This document shows, piece by piece, positions 7,386-16,711 of a DNA stretch of 64,000 nt. Made by a program: the position numbers and the translations under genes. The notes under the pieces were generated by a model. The model ran no database searches and had not been told where the DNA came from. It saw only the letters and a list, made by a program, of their open reading frames with translations. This DNA is from a virus, in the IMG/VR virus record IMGVR_UViG_3300021197_001928, positions 1 to 64,000 of that record; one strand, given 5' to 3'. Positions within the stretch are counted from its first letter, which is position 1, and the number at the start of each line of letters is the position of its first letter.

Positions 7386-8969
7386 CTATCCTTTGTAAAT
7401 CCAAGAGTATTGCGTTAATTGTTCTTTAAAATCTTGTTGTTTTTCTTTTGTTGTCTCACTATAACCTTGCATACCTTTAATTGTTGTGTTCATGATACTA
7501 TCACTCTTATACATAGAATTTATCATTGCCTTTTTGTATTCTACCTCTCTCTTGTTTACCTGAAGAGCAGTATCCTTTACCCAACAACCGATAGCAATAG
7601 CCATAATTAAATCGTCATTGTACGACCTCATTGCTTGAGGTTTTCCGTTATTCCAGATAAAAGTTTTAAATTCGTGATATAATCTGGATGAATATGTTGT
7701 TAGCATTTTGTTTCTTACGAATTCTTCTAATTTCGCAACAACGAGGGGCCTTGTTTTTGTTGAGGTTGTAAATCCCGGGATTGCCCTTTCCATTGATTCT
7801 CCTTGGTGAGCCTCAACAAACTCATGCGTCGCCTTCATGGAATAATATAAGTTAGGATATCCAAGGTCTACAAGCTTCTCTAAAATAGAAATGCCAATGC
7901 CGTTGTTTTCGACAACCATTAAGCAGCCACCATATTCCATACCAGCATCAAATAAAATTCTAGAATACATATCTAACGTTGGCTTTCCTTGGTATTCTGC
8001 TACGATTTCCATCGTATTTAATTTTAAAATATGAAACACAGAATTATCAGCACCGTCACCACGTGCAACATCAGCAGTTAACAAATATTGATTATTGCCA
8101 TCAAATTTGCCCCATATCCAAAAGTTTCTATCATATCCTGTTCTGTATACGGGTTCTTTTATATTTCCATGAACCCACGTTAAATCATCTGGGTGTATTA
8201 CTGTATCACCGGAAGTATTAAAGTTGCACAATAACTCTTGTGCTATTTGTCTCTTTGACATATTCTTGGTCTCTTTTTCAAACCAAGCCTGATCTCTTTC
8301 GGGGTGTACGTCCCACATTAATTCAATTGGGTTAAATTCATTATCTCCGTCAACAGCACCGACATAAGTTTTATGAAACCAATTACCAGTTCCCTTTGGG
8401 GTAGATAACGCAATACAGCGACCACCGGTCGCCAATGTAGAATAAACAGCAGTCCATATGTCACTCATCTTCTCAATGTGTGCTGCCTCATCGACAACCA
8501 ATAACGACAGAGCTTCAGATCGACCGGCATCTTCCGATGTGGGTACGGCTTTAATAATCGATCCATTTGACAATTCAAAGGATGTCCTATTATCCACATC
8601 AATAGTCGCAATTTTCATCCAATCAGGTAGATTCTTCATCATGCTTTTTACTTTTTTAACTAAATTGGCCGCTGTGCTGAACTTTGTTGCTAATACAACG
8701 ATGCTCTTTTCTTTGTGAAAAAGCATAAACCAAACACAATAAGCAGCGGTAATCGTAGAGATTCCTAACTGCCTAGCTTTTAATATTACATTAAATCGAA
8801 AATCATTATAATCATTTAGCAAATCGTCTTGATAAGGGTAGGTTTTAAATTGAATTAGCCCCCTCATTGGGTGACTTATGCGACAATAATTATTAATAAA
8901 GTATGGAGCATCTTTCCCACACTTTAATATTTCTTTAACAATTTGTTTTTTTGTTAACCTGAAGGCCAT
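7386..8969 (-). CDS. Terminase large subunit (T4 gp17-like)
   Basis: Walker A-type ILKARQLGIST, Walker B LLVVDEAAH, LSTPKG; nuclease motifs DVARGDGAD, VENNGIG, NDDLIMA. Confidence 0.95.
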   Translation of the reverse strand: MAFRLTKKQIVKEILKCGKDAPYFINNYCRISHPMRGLIQFKTYPYQDDLLNDYNDFRFNVILKARQLGISTITAAYCVWFMLFHKEKSIVVLATKFSTAANLVKKVKSMMKNLPDWMKIATIDVDNRTSFELSNGSIIKAVPTSEDAGRSEALSLLVVDEAAHIEKMSDIWTAVYSTLATGGRCIALSTPKGTGNWFHKTYVGAVDGDNEFNPIELMWDVHPERDQAWFEKETKNMSKRQIAQELLCNFNTSGDTVIHPDDLTWVHGNIKEPVYRTGYDRNFWIWGKFDGNNQYLLTADVARGDGADNSVFHILKLNTMEIVAEYQGKPTLDMYSRILFDAGMEYGGCLMVVENNGIGISILEKLVDLGYPNLYYSMKATHEFVEAHQGESMERAIPGFTTSTKTRPLVVAKLEEFVRNKMLTTYSSRLYHEFKTFIWNNGKPQAMRSYNDDLIMAIAIGCWVKDTALQVNKREVEYKKAMINSMYKSDSIMNTTIKGMQGYSETTKEKQQDFKEQLTQYSWIYKG

Positions 8970-9545: not shown

Positions 9546-9806
9546 TTATTTCTTTTTAGATTCTTGCATTGCGTTTCTATTCATCGCCATTTTTTTCGCT
9601 CGCTCTACATTGCCTTCGAAATTCATAGGGTCTGCGCCGTACATCTCTCTCATCAACTCTACTAGTTCTTGTTGTTTTCTTTCGTGATATCCGCCTGCAA
9701 ACCTATCTGTTTCGCCTTGATATGAAGTGGCCATCTGTGGCATTTCGCTTAGATTTTGCATTTCTTCTTTGATAATCTGCTTAAGTCTCTTATGTGTTAT
9801 TTTCAT
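9546..9806 (-). CDS. Small protein with shared N-terminal leader (MKITHKRLKQIIKEEM)
   Basis: 86 aa; member of the leader family. Confidence 0.7.
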   Translation of the reverse strand: MKITHKRLKQIIKEEMQNLSEMPQMATSYQGETDRFAGGYHERKQQELVELMREMYGADPMNFEGNVERAKKMAMNRNAMQESKKK

Positions 9807-10178: not shown

Positions 10179-10589
10179 CTATTTTACCACATACATAATT
10201 CCGATTGCGGTTGCGACGCCGGTAATAAAACCACCAGCCAACCACAGTCCATTCCTATTAGGGTTGATTTGATCTCTGAGGTATTTGTTTTCTTCGTCTC
10301 GGATATCGATTAATTCATTAAGGCGCATATCATCTGCTTCGCAAGTGGCTGTCAAAATATCAAATTTGTAATTTTCTTGAATTCTCATCAAATTAACTTC
10401 ATAATCAACTCGAAGCTCGCACTGTTTCCCTTCAAACTGCTTGTCAACGAGCAGTCTGGCAACTGCTGCGTCATTAAATAATCTGCCGTCAAAGGGAACA
10501 ACATCGCCCTCTTGAACGGGTGTAAAAACAGGTTCCTCTGCGTGTGCAACAGGGCATGCTATTAATAGAAATAATAAAAAACTAGTCAT
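10179..10589 (-). CDS. Envelope protein with signal peptide, coiled coil and C-terminal TM helix (spanin-like topology)
   Basis: Start reassigned to ATG 10589 (GGAGG RBS); MTSFLLFLLIACPVAHA/EE signal; C-terminal LWLAGGFITGVATAIGIMYVV. Confidence 0.6.
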   Translation of the reverse strand: MTSFLLFLLIACPVAHAEEPVFTPVQEGDVVPFDGRLFNDAAVARLLVDKQFEGKQCELRVDYEVNLMRIQENYKFDILTATCEADDMRLNELIDIRDEENKYLRDQINPNRNGLWLAGGFITGVATAIGIMYVVK

Positions 10590-10610
10590 AAGACCTCCAT
10601 GTAAAGATAT

Positions 10611-10639
10611 ATTATAACATAGTTTTAGGGGCTTGTCAA
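10611..10639 (-). promoter_or_regulatory. sigma70-type promoter
   Basis: Minus strand TTGACA-17 nt-TATAAT with extended -10 TG, intergenic, upstream of ATG 10589. Confidence 0.85.
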
Positions 10640-10647
10640 GTTTTTTC

Positions 10648-11019
10648 TTAAACTTTTTTACCGTCAATATAGATGTCAATGCTGTCTAGATCGGGCTTAC
10701 CAATGTTAAACGACTCACCTTCATCAGAACCCGGACCACCAAAGTGCCCAAGCAGTTCTCTTGCCATCTTAAAGCGAGGTGCATTGTCCCAATCCCTTAT
10801 GCTAGCATTGTATCTCATTCGACTTGAATCAAAATCAACATTTCGCCCCTTATAAGTTCCTTTTATCGCCCAACCAGCTTCAGATGGAGTTACTCGAAGT
10901 TCATCTCTTTCTTCCGGATAATATCTTTGAGCCATCTCTCCATGGTCCATAGCTTCGCCTTGAAGCATGCCGAGTTCTTCTTTTATCATCTGTTTTAATT
11001 GTTTTGTTGTTAATTTCAC
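10648..11019 (-). CDS. Protein with shared N-terminal leader (MKLTTKQLKQMIKEEL)
   Basis: 123 aa, GTG start overlapping the upstream stop. Confidence 0.7.
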   Translation of the reverse strand: MKLTTKQLKQMIKEELGMLQGEAMDHGEMAQRYYPEERDELRVTPSEAGWAIKGTYKGRNVDFDSSRMRYNASIRDWDNAPRFKMARELLGHFGGPGSDEGESFNIGKPDLDSIDIYIDGKKV

Positions 11020-11270
11020 TGTATGTCTCCTACTGATTGGTTTATTTCTTGCGTAAAATCTTTTCTTAGTTTAATTAGTGGATTAAAGTTTGCTTTCTTT
11101 CGCTCCAGAATTAAATTACCTTGTGGTTTAACTAGTTCACCTTCAAGCTCTAATGCCTCAAAGTCTATCTCTGTTTTCTTTTTGTAAATTACAATTGGAT
11201 CATCATCGTCATCATCAGCCATAACTGGTGTTGTTATTAACAACAATCCGATTATCATAAATTTTTTCAT
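11016..11270 (-). CDS. Secreted protein resembling myxobacterial gliding protein CglF/GltF
   Basis: Signal peptide followed by YKKKTEIDF...LEGELVKPQG..I.ERK...F.PLIKLR.DF..E...SV, matching the CglF family pattern as I recall it. Confidence 0.7.
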   Translation of the reverse strand: MKKFMIIGLLLITTPVMADDDDDDPIVIYKKKTEIDFEALELEGELVKPQGNLILERKKANFNPLIKLRKDFTQEINQSVGDIQ

Positions 11271-11419
11271 TTCTTTTTCCTCTTCGCTAGTTTCTCTATT
11301 CTTTCCAATTCGCTCTCGATGTGATCAAGGCGGTGTTGCGTTGTATAATAGAATCCACCGAGAATAGCAATTATGCCCCCGATGGTTAGTATAGTGGTTA
11401 GGTTCATTTCTAATTTCAT
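11267..11419 (-). CDS. 50-aa single-TM membrane protein (not in ORF track)
   Basis: MKLEMNLTTILTIGGIIAILGGFYYTTQHRLDHIESELERIEKLAKRKKK; ATGA overlaps at both ends fill the gap exactly. Confidence 0.7.
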   Translation of the reverse strand: MKLEMNLTTILTIGGIIAILGGFYYTTQHRLDHIESELERIEKLAKRKKK

Positions 11420-11820
11420 TGTTTCTTTATGCCTAGCTCTTCTTCTAAGATGCGATCAATCTCTTCTGGGTTGGTCTTCGCCTTTTTCACCATTTTTTTG
11501 ATGGCTTCTTTTTTAGCGTGAGTTAGATTAAATTGATCTTCTTCATGCTTTTTCTCAATTTTTGCAACAGCCTCTGAGTACCGCTTGTGTGCTTCCTCTT
11601 TCTTTTGCAACTCTAGCCTGTGTGTTCTTTCGATTATTTCTCTTTCTTTGATATACATTTCTTTGGCTAGTCTTGCTTGCTCTTCAAGCTTGCCCTTGCC
11701 TTTCTTTCCAAAAAAATAAGACGCCAACACTGCGATAGCAAATATAAGCCATCTCCAATATTGGCGACACCATGCGGCAGCTAATTTCAACTTAACCCAA
11801 AACATTAACCATGCTTCCAA
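11416..11820 (-). CDS. N-terminal TM plus coiled-coil protein (inner-membrane spanin-like topology)
   Basis: WRWLIFAIAVLASYFF followed by a charged helical region. Confidence 0.55.
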   Translation of the reverse strand: MEAWLMFWVKLKLAAAWCRQYWRWLIFAIAVLASYFFGKKGKGKLEEQARLAKEMYIKEREIIERTHRLELQKKEEAHKRYSEAVAKIEKKHEEDQFNLTHAKKEAIKKMVKKAKTNPEEIDRILEEELGIKKQ

Positions 11821-12071
11821 ACTTTAACTGTGTCGATGACTGATTGGCCACCAACATAAATCATTGCAATTAATCCCCAAGTGTCGGGATCAAGCCCGTA
11901 CCACATAAACATGCCTGTTGCTGTTGCAAAAACCAACAGCTTTCTAGACACAGCTTTACCAAGAATAATATCTACCACTCCAAGTTTGTTCATTGCTTCC
12001 ATTGACTCGCAGTCACCTGATAATTGAGTGCCCTCTTGTTCGGCACCATGATCGTGATCGTGACAAGACAT
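11805..12071 (-). CDS. Holin-like two-TM protein with His-rich N-terminus
   Basis: ATG 12071 with GGGAGG RBS; SRKLLVF motif and two TM segments; begins MSCHDHDH. Confidence 0.55.
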   Translation of the reverse strand: MSCHDHDHGAEQEGTQLSGDCESMEAMNKLGVVDIILGKAVSRKLLVFATATGMFMWYGLDPDTWGLIAMIYVGGQSVIDTVKVWKHG

Positions 12072-12151
12072 TAGCAACAGCCTCCCTTACAAGTGCAACC
12101 TTCACAGCATGGTGTTGTGCATTTGCATTTTTTTTCTTCTGTTTTACTCAT
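12071..12151 (-). CDS. 26-aa Cys-rich metallothionein-like peptide (not in ORF track)
   Basis: MSKTEEKKCKCTTPCCEGCTCKGGCC; GAGG RBS; ATGA overlap upstream and TAATG overlap downstream. Confidence 0.7.
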   Translation of the reverse strand: MSKTEEKKCKCTTPCCEGCTCKGGCC

Positions 12152-12498
12152 TTTTTGTTCCTCTTTTTGTTTTCCATATATTTTTGGTAATGGTCTGGCC
12201 CTTTAGTAAAGTCTGGCTTTCTACCATAAAATGGCTCTGATTTGCGTGTTTCGTATTCCTTTTCATGTCCACCTTGAGCCATACCATCTTGCATGCCTCT
12301 CTGGTATTCAGGGTCTTCCAAGATGCCTCGATCTTGCTCTCCGCTTTCTTTACCGAACCTTACCTTACTGAATCCTGCGACCCAGCCCTTGCGGTACATC
12401 GGTGTACCTTCGGGTACTTCCTGTAAAAGTTCCATTTCGGTTAGAGCCTGAAGCTCTTCTTTGATCATTTGTCTTAATCTTTCTGATGTTAGTTTCAT
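12148..12498 (-). CDS. Protein with shared N-terminal leader (MKLTSERLRQMIKEEL)
   Basis: 116 aa; member of the leader family. Confidence 0.7.
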   Translation of the reverse strand: MKLTSERLRQMIKEELQALTEMELLQEVPEGTPMYRKGWVAGFSKVRFGKESGEQDRGILEDPEYQRGMQDGMAQGGHEKEYETRKSEPFYGRKPDFTKGPDHYQKYMENKKRNKK

Positions 12499-12500
12499 TT

Positions 12501-15500
12501 TTATATCCTCACGTTAGCATAGCCATCAATTTTATTTATATCAATTGTCGTGTCAACAACATCTTTTAAGGAATCAAGATGAGAGATTAAAATTACAGTC
12601 TTGAATTGATTCTTAATCAACCTAAGCAATCTTGTAAAACCTTCCATGTGCTCTTGATCTAAAGCGGTTGCTGGCTCATCAAGTATAAATAGTTCACTCT
12701 TTGGCAAATTCGTTATTGATATTAACGCTAGGCGAATAGCCATTGAAGCAAGAGTCTTCTCTGCGCCTGAGCCCATCGAAAGTGGGCGAGGATCGTAATA
12801 TGGATGCTTTATCAAGATGTCGAGTTTGGCATCATTGGACTCAAAAAACACTTCAAAATCCACAATATTGCTCAGTATCTTGGATATTTCCTCGTTAACA
12901 AGGGGCAGCTTTTGTTTAATGATTTGATATGGTATACCGTTTGCATGCATACATTGCAAAAATAAATCGTAAGCTACCCACTCCTTTTCAACTTCTTCTA
13001 GCTCCTTGCGGCTTTCTTTCAAGTTATTTAAATTTGCTTGAGTCGAGCCCTCCTCAACAAGTATCTTAGTAATCCTATCTTGGCACTTTATAAAACTATT
13101 ATCTTTGATCTGTATTGCTTTTTCCAAATCTGACTTTTCCTTGGTTAATGCGCTTAGATTTTCAATTGCTTCACGATTTTCTTCATAAACTTGCTTTTTG
13201 TAACACAACTCTTCGTACTCTTTTTGTAGAAGATTAATTTTTGACTTATTGCCTTCAATCGATAGTTTATTCATTTCGACTGTTCTTTTGATTTTATGAA
13301 TCCCCTCTTGTAGGCTGACATGTAAATCGATATTTTGGTCAACTTCCTCGACATTTAAAGAATTTAGGCTGTCTGATAAATCTCTTTGGTGCTGCTGTAG
13401 GTGTGCAATCCTATCTGTTGTTGTTAATAAGGACTCCTTGGCTTTGTGGGCATCTTTTACAAACTTATTTTCACAACAAAAGCTACAATCCGGATCATAT
13501 TCATGATTGTCAAGCATCTTAATTTTGTTTCTCTCAACTTTTTCTTGAGATATCCAATTATCTAATGCCTGCCGGGTCTTTTTAATCTTGTGCTCAATAG
13601 CATCAGCCGAGGCCTTTTTCAGTCTTAGCTCGCCAATGTTAATTATATCAAAATCTTTAGATTTCAACTCTAGACTTTCTTCTAATTCCCAAACCTTAAA
13701 GTTAAATTCTTGAGTTTTATCTTTCAGATGTTGTTTTCTTTTTTGTATCTGTTTGATTTCGTTCGTGACCTTATCAATGTCTATTGACTCAGCAGGTATA
13801 CTGTTTATTTTGCCATCTATCAAGTCCAATTCCGACTGCAACTTCGCACGTTTAGACGTTATGTCGCCGCATCTTGCCCTTTGAGCGACCAACTCTTCTT
13901 GAATTTCCTCTAAAATTTCAATATTTTTTTGAATATCCTTATCCCATTTCTTATCTTGAAGTCTCTTGACAACTCCTTTTAGTTCTGCTGCGTCTTTCTT
14001 TGCTAGTTTAAATTTTTTATCAAATATTTCTAAATCAAGAAACTTTGCAAGAATTTCCTTACGTTTTGTCGACCCCTCTTTAACAAATGACAAAGAATCC
14101 AACTGTGATGACATAGAGGTGAGAAGAAAGTCTTCCATTGTTCCAAAGCGCTTTCTTATATTGGCGTCAGTCTCATTGCGAGTTGTACCATTCATGCTTT
14201 CGTCCTCGGAGGTCAAATGGAAATCCAAGTCAACTTTTGCTTCTTGCGTCTCTCTACCTTTATACCTTTTGGTATATTTTTCAAGATTGCGGCAAATTTT
14301 GTACCTCTTATCCCCAATGTCAATTTCAATCTTACCAATCGCCTTGGTTTTATTTTGATTTATGACGTGTACGTTTTTGCGCTCACCTTTCGAGGTTGTA
14401 TTAAACAGCGTGAATAAAATGCTGTCGATAATACTAGATTTTCCGGAATAGTTACGACCAAAGATCCCAACAAGGCCGTTGAGTTTTGAAAAGTCGATTT
14501 GATTCTTTTCACCGTAGTTGAAGAGGTTCCCCCACTCCGCTTTCCTAATTTTCCAAATAACATTTCTACTAACTTCCTCCCCTTGTTCTGCTAAAGTATT
14601 GTATTTTTTATTGTGCTCTAAAACCTTTTCGATTACATCAGATTCAAGCTCCATCCCGGCTAAATAGTTGTTAATATACTTTTCTTGCACACTAATATCA
14701 CGAAGGTTCTCTGTTAGTATGGAATTTCCGTAATTTCCTTCGTCATGCATATTCGAAGACTCTTTTCCATTTAACATAACAACAGAGTATGGGCTCCACC
14801 TCATTTCTGCGATTGCCTTTGCTTTTCTGACTTTATCAGATGGCAGGTTAGTCTTGGAAACAATTCTAAGTCTAGAATTTCTGGGTACATGGGTATCGGG
14901 CAGTTTGCCTTCTTTTGACAACCTTACAGTAATAAATGGCCTTGGATTAATTAAGTGACGTTTTAAAACGTTAAAGTTATTCTTATCTTTAATCTCCCAC
15001 AGGAGATAGCCTTTCATGGCAGATTCACTAAACTTTTGTTGAGTGGTTGAACCACAATACCACACACGACCATCGTCATCTAATTTTTGTTGCCTGTGTA
15101 TGTCGCCAAGCATTGCAAAGTCATGGTCGTTAAATATTGTTACTTCGTCATCACCCTGATCCATTGTCCAGTTAGAACCAGTTAGACAGCCGGCAATGGC
15201 TCCATGGTATAGCGCAACGTTGATTTTATTTTTATCGGTTGGCTTAATCCAGTTATCTCTATCAAAGACCGATAGTACATTAAGCACTAGGTCGCCCTCT
15301 ACCCTTGTTTCTCCGCTGTTTTTCAACAAATGGAGGTTAGGGTGCTTTAAAGCGTTTACGATTGGCGTAACAGCGTCCTGTCGGCTGTCATTCTTAAGAT
15401 TCCCATCATGGTTCCCAAGGATAATATATGTCGGTGCAATGTTTGCCAAAGATGATAAAAACTCAGCACATAATTGAAAGTATTCAGGGCTGAGTTGTGT

Positions 15501-15650
15501 TTTGGTGTGTGCAAGGTCTCCACAGTGGACAATACAGTCCGGAGAGTCGTTTGCCAGTTTCTCATAGAGATCACGAAACGCAATGCGATATTCATCGTGA
15601 TACTTTAAATTTCTTATATGTGTGTCTGCTATATGTGCTATCTTATACAT
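12501..15650 (-). CDS. Fused SbcD/Mre11 nuclease - SbcC/Rad50 ATPase (gp47-gp46-like)
   Basis: Phosphoesterase motifs HIADTH, GDL, GNHD, LGDIH; Walker A GRNYSGKSS; coiled coil with CSFC hook; signature SGAE, Walker B FILDEP, ISH. Confidence 0.92.
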   Translation of the reverse strand: MYKIAHIADTHIRNLKYHDEYRIAFRDLYEKLANDSPDCIVHCGDLAHTKTQLSPEYFQLCAEFLSSLANIAPTYIILGNHDGNLKNDSRQDAVTPIVNALKHPNLHLLKNSGETRVEGDLVLNVLSVFDRDNWIKPTDKNKINVALYHGAIAGCLTGSNWTMDQGDDEVTIFNDHDFAMLGDIHRQQKLDDDGRVWYCGSTTQQKFSESAMKGYLLWEIKDKNNFNVLKRHLINPRPFITVRLSKEGKLPDTHVPRNSRLRIVSKTNLPSDKVRKAKAIAEMRWSPYSVVMLNGKESSNMHDEGNYGNSILTENLRDISVQEKYINNYLAGMELESDVIEKVLEHNKKYNTLAEQGEEVSRNVIWKIRKAEWGNLFNYGEKNQIDFSKLNGLVGIFGRNYSGKSSIIDSILFTLFNTTSKGERKNVHVINQNKTKAIGKIEIDIGDKRYKICRNLEKYTKRYKGRETQEAKVDLDFHLTSEDESMNGTTRNETDANIRKRFGTMEDFLLTSMSSQLDSLSFVKEGSTKRKEILAKFLDLEIFDKKFKLAKKDAAELKGVVKRLQDKKWDKDIQKNIEILEEIQEELVAQRARCGDITSKRAKLQSELDLIDGKINSIPAESIDIDKVTNEIKQIQKRKQHLKDKTQEFNFKVWELEESLELKSKDFDIINIGELRLKKASADAIEHKIKKTRQALDNWISQEKVERNKIKMLDNHEYDPDCSFCCENKFVKDAHKAKESLLTTTDRIAHLQQHQRDLSDSLNSLNVEEVDQNIDLHVSLQEGIHKIKRTVEMNKLSIEGNKSKINLLQKEYEELCYKKQVYEENREAIENLSALTKEKSDLEKAIQIKDNSFIKCQDRITKILVEEGSTQANLNNLKESRKELEEVEKEWVAYDLFLQCMHANGIPYQIIKQKLPLVNEEISKILSNIVDFEVFFESNDAKLDILIKHPYYDPRPLSMGSGAEKTLASMAIRLALISITNLPKSELFILDEPATALDQEHMEGFTRLLRLIKNQFKTVILISHLDSLKDVVDTTIDINKIDGYANVRI

Positions 15651-15874: not shown

Positions 15875-16134
15875 AAGTTCTCCTTCTGAATTGTTACGTA
15901 GGGCAAGGTGCCCGTTATTCCGCCAACACGATGAGGCAGATCATAATTCTTCGCAACTCTAACAACAATCTTTTTCATTATTGGTGAGTTGCCGGTGATG
16001 ATCTTCATCTCTTTGCCCCAGTTTTCGTTAATAAACTTGTGGCATTGGTATGGAGCATTTTCATAATCCACTCCGTGTAAATCTAGTTCATTCACATTAT
16101 CCTCCTTCTTTGTTGTAAAGTCTCTTGCCTTCAT
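15871..16134 (-). CDS. Stand-alone Smr (small MutS-related) domain protein
   Basis: ELDLHG and IITGNS motifs; the true start may be GTG near 16095. Confidence 0.75.
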   Translation of the reverse strand: MKARDFTTKKEDNVNELDLHGVDYENAPYQCHKFINENWGKEMKIITGNSPIMKKIVVRVAKNYDLPHRVGGITGTLPYVTIQKENL

Positions 16135-16711
16135 TCAAATACTTCTTAATTTGCTCGCTCTCTTTCTTTAGTAACACATCTCGTGATATGTCGCAAGGTA
16201 ATTTTTCGATTACTTCATAAATAAATGCTTCCTCTCCGTACTTGTCCCAGTCTTCTTGAAGTTGTTTGTTGCCGTGTCTGTTGTGTCGCAAATTCCATTT
16301 GTGATTGGCCCATCGATTTCGATATGCGGTTGATTGGCCAATATAAGTTGTTCCTGTTTTTATGTTTGTTATTTTATAGACCGCAGCAGGTTGTTGTGTA
16401 CGGCATTCTTTCTTGCGTTCATTAATTCGTTCTTTGTTTTTTTCATAGTGTTTTTTATCGTACTCTTTCTTTCGTTCTTTGTTTTTTTCATAGTATTCTT
16501 TGAGCCGTTCTTTGTTTTTTTCATAGTATTCTTTTTGTTGTTTTGAAATTCGTTCTTTGTTTTTTTCATAGTATTCTTTCACGTATCCTTTTTGTTGTTT
16601 TAAAATTCGTTCTTTGTTTTTTTCATAGTATTCTTTTTGTTGTTTTGAAATTCGTTCTTTGTTTTTTTCATACCATTTTTTATGGTATTCTCTTCTGTCT
16701 CTTTTCGTCAC
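16097..16711 (-). CDS. GIY-YIG endonuclease with N-terminal helical repeats
   Basis: AVYKITN..TG..YIGQS....RW..H...L....H.N..LQEDW.KYG...F; N-terminal YYEKNKER repeats. Confidence 0.85.
   Translation of the reverse strand: MTKRDRREYHKKWYEKNKERISKQQKEYYEKNKERILKQQKGYVKEYYEKNKERISKQQKEYYEKNKERLKEYYEKNKERKKEYDKKHYEKNKERINERKKECRTQQPAAVYKITNIKTGTTYIGQSTAYRNRWANHKWNLRHNRHGNKQLQEDWDKYGEEAFIYEVIEKLPCDISRDVLLKKESEQIKKYLNEGKRLYNKEGG
16425..16672. repeat. Imperfect in-frame tandem repeats encoding YYEKNKER(ISKQQKE)
   Basis: About six copies of the core cgttctttgtttttttcata at irregular, in-frame spacings. Confidence 0.85.

Follow-up and report, generated by a model that had tools for sequence, protein, structure and literature searches.

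We analysed a 64,000-nucleotide stretch of viral DNA (positions 1 to 64,000 of IMG/VR virus record IMGVR_UViG_3300021197_001928; hereafter the window) and found that it carries a gene for a small secreted protein of the CglF/GltF family, a part of the Agl-Glt gliding machine of Myxococcus xanthus. The gene, which we call phage gltF, lies at positions 11016-11270 on the minus strand, and none of the other glt genes accompanies it. Phages have acquired gltF repeatedly, and purifying selection has kept a host-like pattern of conserved residues in their copies. Overall, this suggests that phages carrying gltF tune an envelope machine in the cells they infect. Our tentative reading, to which we give somewhat less than an even chance, is that phage GltF is a host-derived working linker that enters a Glt-type machine of the host and sustains or retunes it.

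The phage protein belongs to the CglF/GltF family

CglF and GltF are one protein (PMC4488436). In M. xanthus, GltF is periplasmic, essential for gliding, located at focal adhesion clusters and needed for the clustering of GltD (PMC3169522), and CglF is transferable between cells (PMC3325183). The original prediction, made from the DNA letters, had named the phage protein as a CglF/GltF homolog. The identity of the two proteins, the type I signal sequence and the likely transfer by outer-membrane exchange are documented in the literature (PMC4488436, PMC3325183).

The homology itself is correct. A hidden Markov model search gave a significant, full-length match to the NCBIfam family gliding_CglF (NF033764; expectation value (E) 7e-17, 61.2 bits), with residues 3-83 aligned to positions 3-88 of the 88 in the model, and a six-frame search of the window scored 60.1 bits against the same family. 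The phage protein is 42-64% identical to bacterial GltFs sitting among other glt genes, and 36% identical to its best Myxococcaceae-type match (L087). With GltFs of marine MAGs (metagenome-assembled genomes) the identity is 50-64%. No family in Pfam or PHROGs matched it. The whole-genome NCBIfam scan gave no other gliding or myxobacterial family among the matches listed (25 of 82 families).

At 61.2 bits, the phage protein does not reach the equivalog cut-off of NF033764, which is 90 bits. GltFs flanked by other glt genes in metagenome-assembled genomes (MAGs) themselves score 46-63 bits. For instance, the homolog of a Myxococcota MAG (L008) has 46.5 bits only, although it lies in the order GltC, GltD-like tetratricopeptide repeat protein, GltE, CglF, GltG and CglE/GltH; five further MAG genomes gave 47-63 bits. 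Among 401 genomes sampled from Myxococcota, the GltF-rich phylum, 285 had a match (E 1e-5 or better) and only 3 exceeded 90 bits. Judged by these scores, the cut-off is tuned to close relatives of Myxococcus, and the phage protein is best called a family member and not a certified equivalog.

A second CglF match in the window, at 16381-16545 (E 0.001), was rejected as spurious. It arises from a Lys/Glu-rich repeat of a GIY-YIG-like protein at 16097-16711 (minus strand), in which Lys/Glu/Tyr-rich near-repeats (KEYYEKNKERI...) precede the GIY-YIG-like end.

The open reading frame (ORF) bears out the 84-residue protein with signal peptide, acidic linker and core motif that had been described at first reading (Table 1). 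It starts with an ATG that overlaps the upstream gene, and GAGGA about 8 nucleotides before the start serves as ribosome-binding site. The protein consists of a cleavable leader, a linker of six Asp and a core of about 60 residues, with no anchor. Ala18 is invariant in alignment A3, AxA-type leaders stand at the equivalent place in bacterial GltFs, and the acidic stretch after the leader is common to bacterial and phage homologs. The AlphaFold2 monomer has a helix at residues 2-11 (the signal peptide), coil, and a second helix at 73-82, with a mean predicted local distance difference test (pLDDT) score of 66; the conserved segment at residues 29-57 is unstructured in it. M. xanthus GltF is likewise described as mostly disordered with a C-terminal helix (PMC11761067), and the build of the phage protein (leader, disordered body, C-terminal helix) agrees with that description.

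Bacterial copies sit in glt clusters and phage copies stand alone

A search of 5.8 billion proteins returned 135 homologs of 46-147 residues, mostly from marine metagenomes. For bacteria, a pattern scan of one genome per species yielded 53 loci, and the same scan of IMG/VR yielded 30. Glt neighbours were called by tblastn with the Glt proteins of L008. Of the 53 bacterial loci, 52 carry other glt genes beside the homolog, usually gltC, gltD and gltE before it and gltG and gltH after it. The sole exception (L031) has the appearance of a phage fragment: an 8.9-kilobase contig with small same-strand ORFs, placed in a 'Bdellovibrionota' MAG by binning.

By contrast with this clustering, Glt neighbours were found in none of the 30 IMG/VR loci and nowhere in the window, where gltF stands alone. 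This survey of related phages, which had been proposed with the original prediction, located gltF in 30 further IMG/VR contigs. Ten of them (L056-L061, L066 and L069-L071) are syntenic with the window, and their terminases are 72-89% identical to its own. In these ten, gltF keeps its slot after genes for transmembrane/coiled-coil proteins and before the gene for a tail-anchored periplasmic protein. The remaining twenty have only gltF in common with the window; among their own genes are those for a terminase of another family, T4-type topoisomerase II subunits, PhoH or DNA ligase. Across four other phage clades, gltF lies among genes for Nudix, PhoH, topoisomerase and nucleotide metabolism proteins, with no membrane or coiled-coil neighbours like those of the window. 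A tblastn search of 50,697 GenBank phage records gave no match to gltF. In the ESM Atlas the nearest clusters are labelled viral, which we take as a lead only.

Some further features of these loci were noted. Two genes upstream of gltF, L080 (5168-6775, plus strand) encodes a 535-residue lipoprotein, and genes for a serine-protease-like secreted protein and a Nudix hydrolase come next; L076 and L085 have the same arrangement. The lipoprotein has a choice-of-anchor D domain and a repeat with matches to CglD (E 1.4e-8) and, at E 2.6e-10, to a MIDAS adhesin of Bdellovibrio, making it a second host-envelope-like gene in a gltF neighbourhood. Directly after gltF in L064, a 71-residue ORF (8252-8467, plus strand) has by eye the look of a Flp-type pilin (G-Q-S-T-V-E-Y, then a hydrophobic helix), with no NCBIfam match. 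On the bacterial side, some Myxococcota MAGs carry GltF-like ORFs in tandem (G006 C264 358-549 and 778-1017; G008 C34 571010-571710), the upstream copy being far more divergent (36-37 versus 122 bits). Cluster order also varies: in one bacterial clade (L021, L046, L049 and L053), gltH follows gltF directly and no gltG was detected between them.

Phage copies have at least two origins and are under purifying selection

A maximum likelihood tree was inferred from a 62-residue core in 74 distinct rows, where the small number of columns leaves many forks open. About five clades hold the phage copies, which, given the well-supported branches, cannot go back to fewer than two origins. Three of the copies (L062, L077 and L082) are nested inside bacterial GltFs, in a clade with UBA796-type marine MAGs (98/92, 99/93). 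Judging from this tree, gltF has been acquired repeatedly by phages.

Within the phage clades, the proportion of synonymous differences (pS) is 0.26-1.0, which is near saturation, while that of nonsynonymous differences (pN) is 0.007-0.27. The ratio of nonsynonymous to synonymous rates (dN/dS) is 0.01-0.17 wherever dS could be estimated, and the reading frame is intact in all copies. Because synonymous sites are near saturation while pN is low, we take gltF to be old in these phages and under selection. The pattern of constraint resembles that of the bacterial protein: per-column entropies in 25 distinct phage cores and 48 bacterial cores correlate with a Spearman coefficient of 0.68. Nine residues (Y29, T33, I35, F37, G44, P49, Q50, L55 and R57) never vary among the 25 distinct phage copies, and all but T33, I35, Q50 and L55 (83-98%) are invariant in the 48 bacterial copies as well. 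Toward the C-terminus, F62, N63, I66 and R69 are invariant in both sets, and L68 is invariant in phages and 85% conserved in bacteria.

Phage GltF as a candidate linker between GltG and GltC

The published model of M. xanthus GltF has one strand of the protein paired with the TonB-like C-terminal domain of GltG and the C-terminal helix resting in a crevice of GltC, with contacts to GltD en route (PMC11761067). Mapped by position onto this model, the phage protein appears to keep both the GltG-assigned and the GltC-assigned segment. The GltG C-terminal domain is 75-95% conserved across GltF-bearing MAGs. We predicted a complex of phage GltF residues 24-84 (alignment A3) with the GltG C-terminal domain of the marine MAG L022 (alignment A2). 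The prediction scored 0.36 (runs 0.35, 0.44 and 0.36) versus 0.01 for the best control; the runs share at least 40% of their contacts, and the partner has a pLDDT of at least 50. The mark used here is one that 58 of 80 solved complexes and 2 of 110 mismatched pairs attained. Scores of 0.60 or below, however, account for just 7 of those 80 complexes and for both mismatches. The result is rated as weak support. Co-folding of this kind, as suggested at first reading, shifts the odds a little and settles nothing.

We infer the following scheme for the partners of phage GltF, its timing and its effect. The gene would be expressed probably late, together with the adjoining membrane-protein genes. 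A Sec signal peptide would direct its product out of the cytoplasm and be removed after Ala18, leaving a mature protein of about 66 residues in the periplasm. There it may dock on an Agl-Glt/Nfs-type machine of Myxococcota as the host's own GltF does. Its extended segment (Y-K..T-E-I-D-F-E..G-E-L-V-K-P-Q-G) would add a strand to the TonB-like C-terminal domain of GltG, and its C-terminal helix would sit in the GltC crevice. The docked protein would bridge the inner-membrane motor side (AglRQS-GltG-GltD) to the outer-membrane platform (GltC-GltABH). By supplying or over-supplying this linker, the phage could keep the proton-motive-force-driven machine assembled, or retune it, after host expression has been shut off. 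We read the protein as a working linker because it has an export signal and the full host-like core.

The original prediction proposed jamming or exclusion, an outcome that we consider rather doubtful. Here, excess free GltF would saturate GltG and GltC separately (a prozone effect), since a surplus of a bridging adaptor can itself break the bridge, or an altered binding geometry would have a similar consequence. The motor would be uncoupled from the outer-membrane platform, so that gliding stops or entry that depends on Glt or TonB-like proteins is closed to superinfecting phages. The docking evidence is the same as for a working linker. At several positions that do not vary in bacteria, phage clades show relaxed or different residues (E45, M76, D56 to E, and a 'VLQKPQS' variant in one clade), gltF of the window lineage lies among membrane proteins, a typical place of exclusion genes, and other gltF phages have further envelope genes nearby, such as the choice-of-anchor D lipoprotein with CglD-like repeats. 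However, a one-sided blocker needs a single interface, and in the phage copies neither the extended segment nor the C-terminal helix box has lost its invariance at saturated synonymous divergence, which slightly disfavours jamming. Glt components are also not known to be phage receptors. We rank supply or retuning above jamming because both interface segments have been conserved over a long divergence.

Several points weigh against a working linker in a Glt-type machine. The GltG complex prediction is weak and may echo solved strand pairings of TonB with the TonB box. Relaxation of the bacterial-invariant E45, V47/K48 and M76, together with the change of D56 to E, could mean an altered, non-native binding, and the sequence itself does not tell a sustained machine from a jammed one. 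For the timing of expression, the clues are overlapping genes and a single weak motif resembling a promoter. The window clade is made up of seven phage rows only (99/90), with no bacterial sister and not nested in any bacterial clade. The window has a guanine-cytosine (GC) content of 37.6%, compared with 51-73% for GltF-bearing MAG loci, and its closest cultured terminase relatives infect Flavobacterium and Microcystis. The terminase did not turn up in the bins of the 401 genomes from the GltF-rich phylum (E 1e-40 or better), an empty answer that shows nothing. When 124 genomes of the phylum of the MAG holding L031 were searched, the only match was that phage-like contig itself.

The host question

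The range of GltF was earlier given as Myxococcales and Bdellovibrionales only (PMC3169522). The original prediction had pointed to a host of the Myxococcota/Bdellovibrionota type. The Myxococcota part of this fits the family, which is present in 285 of the 401 genomes, while GC content, clade position and terminase relatives give no direct link. We consider a Myxococcota-type host plausible because of the family range and the phage clade L062/L077/L082 nested among bacterial GltFs. T4-like phages can lie 15 points below their hosts in GC content (T4 about 35%, Escherichia coli about 51%), and the GC gap is therefore not fatal to such a host.

The same facts bear on a quite unlikely alternative, in which the host has no full Glt machine and the GltF core acts as a generic strand-donating ligand of TonB/TolA domains, tapping or blocking an energised envelope system. 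Such a ligand might act on the older core complex (GltC-D-E-G plus AglRQS) that some Gammaproteobacteria or Fibrobacteres have, or directly on TonB/TolA; a core complex without GltF does exist outside Myxococcota (PMC3169522). The GC gap, the lack of a link between the window clade and Myxococcota, and terminase relatives that infect other phyla would fit such a host, as would the phage-like contig L031 in a MAG of a phylum otherwise devoid of the family (0 of 123 other genomes). On the other hand, phage GltF is 50-64% identical to Glt-flanked GltFs, its conserved C-terminal helix box is assigned by the published model to GltC and not to the TonB-like domain, and at least one phage clade is nested inside Myxococcota GltFs. 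Moreover, T4-like phages are often far below their hosts in GC content, and a binned contig is weak evidence for a host.

The carrier genome and the neighbours of gltF

The window belongs to a 95,829-base IMG/VR virus record with a CheckV completeness of about 53%. The carrier of gltF is a genuine phage genome: of its 103 ORFs, 99 share one strand, a gp17-type terminase is present, and a fused Mre11/Rad50-type nuclease-ATPase and a primase-like protein are encoded near gltF. The closest cultured terminases are those of Flavobacterium phage immuto (45%) and Microcystis phage Mel-JY01 (42%), followed by cyanophage gp17. The record is that of a distant T4-like phage, virulent and marine. That gltF sits on a bacterial fragment mis-called viral, or is a decaying passenger gene, is extremely improbable. 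IMG/VR records can contain cellular DNA and this one is incomplete, but the strand bias, the phage genes around gltF, the lack of Glt neighbours, the position kept in ten related phage contigs, the intact frame and a dN/dS of at most 0.17 already contradict it.

Other features of the record deserve mention. The Mre11/Rad50-type protein is a single 1049-residue ORF (12501-15650, minus strand), in which an Mre11-type phosphoesterase (residues 3-222) is fused to a Rad50/SMC-type ATPase; in T4, these functions are divided between two genes, gp47 and gp46. Host-like genes of the record include a split transketolase (two ORFs match), RpiB, dTDP-glucose 4,6-dehydratase, a KdsC-like phosphatase, a BshA-like glycosyltransferase, UvsE and PhoH2. 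A scan of the window for transfer RNA genes found none.

Table 1. Phage gltF, the parts of its product, and nearby features of the window
Feature	Position	Strand	Remarks
Terminase large subunit, gp17-type	7386..8969	-	Marks the record as phage; phrog_2, E 1.6e-49
Protein with signal peptide, conserved Cys pair and C-terminal transmembrane anchor	10179..10679	-	Likely start ATG 10589
123-residue protein with MKLT..LKQMIKEE leader	10648..11019	-	Overlaps the gltF stop
Phage gltF/cglF-like gene	11016..11270	-	84 codons plus stop; NF033764 match, homologs, purifying selection
F-N-P-L-I-K-L-R box and C-terminal helix, residues 62-84	11019..11087	-	Candidate GltC-crevice helix
Conserved extended segment, residues 29-57 (Y-K-x-x-T-E-I-D-F-E ... 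G-E-L-V-K-P-Q-G-x-L-x-L-x-R)	11100..11186	-	Candidate strand pairing with the GltG TonB-like C-terminal domain
Acidic linker of six Asp, residues 19-24	11199..11216	-	Predicted from sequence
Type I signal peptide, residues 1-18	11217..11270	-	Predicted from sequence; KK n-region, hydrophobic core, VMA before the predicted cut
50-residue protein, N-terminal transmembrane segment and coiled coil	11267..11419	-	ATGA overlap with the gltF start; weak PHROG match to Rz-like spanin, E 0.0026
134-residue transmembrane protein with Lys/Glu-rich coiled coil	11416..11820	-	Weak PHROG match to Rz-like spanin, E 0.00087
90-residue protein, His/Asp-rich start, two hydrophobic helices	11805..12077	-	Holin-like in topology only
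TATAAATA, T4 late-promoter consensus	12533..12540	-	About 35 nucleotides before the ATG at 12498; heads the overlapping gene run including gltF; weak candidate

The membrane-gene cluster noticed at first reading is real, with transmembrane proteins on both sides of gltF and overlapping stops and starts. Upstream of gltF, the 50-residue transmembrane/coiled-coil protein is kept in L056-L059, the 134-residue one in every syntenic relative whose locus reaches far enough upstream, and the two-helix protein of 90 residues, for which PHROG, Pfam and NCBIfam gave no family match, is conserved at 56-90% in relatives. On the downstream side, the 123-residue protein occurs at this site in the window and L069-L071 only. 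The tail-anchored protein adjoins gltF in all syntenic phages and has no family match. We dropped the idea that it is a u-spanin, based on a lipobox-like LIAC and the C-terminal transmembrane segment, as the Cys is absent in six relatives.

The overlapping gene run containing gltF extends from 12498 to 10179. Its late expression is only a guess, based on the layout and on the candidate promoter before it. In the window, TATAAATA occurs 14 times on both strands versus 6.65 expected, and only 5 times on the sense strand, a marginal enrichment.

With these neighbours, one can ask whether the secreted protein works with the transmembrane/coiled-coil proteins in a holin/antiholin/spanin-type lysis system and its likeness to GltF is incidental. 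We think this very unlikely. The run of overlapping membrane-protein genes, two of them with spanin-like matches, would suit a lysis module, and a secreted protein of about 66 residues recalls periplasmic antiholins such as T4 RI. But the spanin matches are weak and come without Pfam or NCBIfam support, no endolysin is nearby, phage GltF has neither a lipobox nor a transmembrane anchor, and the lipobox-like Cys of the downstream gene is unconserved. In addition, gltF has unrelated contexts in four other phage clades, and its conservation pattern copies that of bacterial GltF.

Two observations concern small ORFs of this region. A leader of the form MK(L/I)T..(L)(K/R)Q(M/I)IKEE is common to three unrelated small proteins (10648-11019, 9546-9806 and 12148-12498, all on the minus strand), and the same MK(L/I)T-type leader opens ORFs adjoining gltF in other phage lineages (L076, L082, L084 and L085). 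Just before the 90-residue two-helix protein, a 26-codon ORF with 8 Cys (12071-12151, minus strand) overlaps both of its neighbours.

Discussion

The protein family is known, and so are host-derived phage genes; what is new is a stand-alone phage copy of a gliding-machine part. The original prediction was unaware of any description of this as a phage auxiliary gene, and this held up: no paper describing a phage copy of GltF/CglF was found in full-text literature searches, in line with the empty search of GenBank phages, and glt genes go unmentioned in a 2026 survey of 790 myxophages.

Several known systems help to place phage GltF. With GltF/CglF of M. xanthus (MXAN_4868; NF033764), it shares full-length family membership, the build and the residues invariant in bacterial orthologs. 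In contrast to that gene, it lies alone on a virulent phage and not between gltE and gltG, scores 61 bits, has 36% identity to the Myxococcaceae-type L087, and has a few positions relaxed. The NfsF/GltF paralogs (sporulation Nfs; G4/G5 clusters) show the C-D-E-F-G-H order of the MAG loci and have functions beyond gliding (PMC3169522). The phage copy could serve an Nfs-like machine; it and the MAG clusters may be of either the Glt or the Nfs subtype. The pairing of the GltF strand with GltG in the published model is of the same kind as that of the TonB C-terminal domain with the TonB box (PMC11761067), but GltF is a soluble linker and no plug of an outer-membrane transporter, and its pairing with GltG is known from models and not from a solved structure.

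Among phage genes, the psbA/D1-type genes of cyanophages, which stand in for host components with a short lifetime, offer a suggestive parallel: they, too, are host-like, carried by virulent marine T4-like phages, captured repeatedly, selected, and preserved in their functional residues. Unlike them, phage GltF would be a structural adaptor of an envelope motor and no metabolic enzyme. T4 Imm and Sp and T5 Llp are small phage envelope proteins acting in exclusion. Being likewise small and envelope-directed and altering the envelope during infection, they provide a frame for jamming, but they are unrelated in sequence to phage GltF and, as lipoproteins or inventions of the phages themselves, do not copy a component of a host machine.

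In a wider picture, which we regard as unlikely but worth stating, large aquatic phages would plug their own linker into the Agl-Glt machine of uncultured planktonic Myxococcota and keep or change gliding and particle adhesion, so that progeny are delivered to dense patches of hosts. The linker might even act on uninfected neighbours by outer-membrane exchange, and the gene would be a sequence marker by which a whole set of abundant marine T4-like phages could be assigned to hosts in Myxococcota.

Within the focal-adhesion gliding machine of bacteria, GltF is a defined component, previously known from Myxococcota and Bdellovibrionota genomes only; here it is found as a conserved gene under selection in at least five groups of phages. 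If our reading of phage GltF as a working linker is true, this would be the first time that a structural component of a gliding or envelope-motor machine has been seen in a virus, and its relatives would provide a natural set of GltF variants for probing the unproven GltF-GltG-GltC bridge. Should the protein instead be a blocker, it would be a compact natural inhibitor of the gliding machine. As a working linker, it might also serve as a host marker, both for the abundant T4-like phages of the sea that are still uncultured and for marine Myxococcota, a group with hardly any known viruses.

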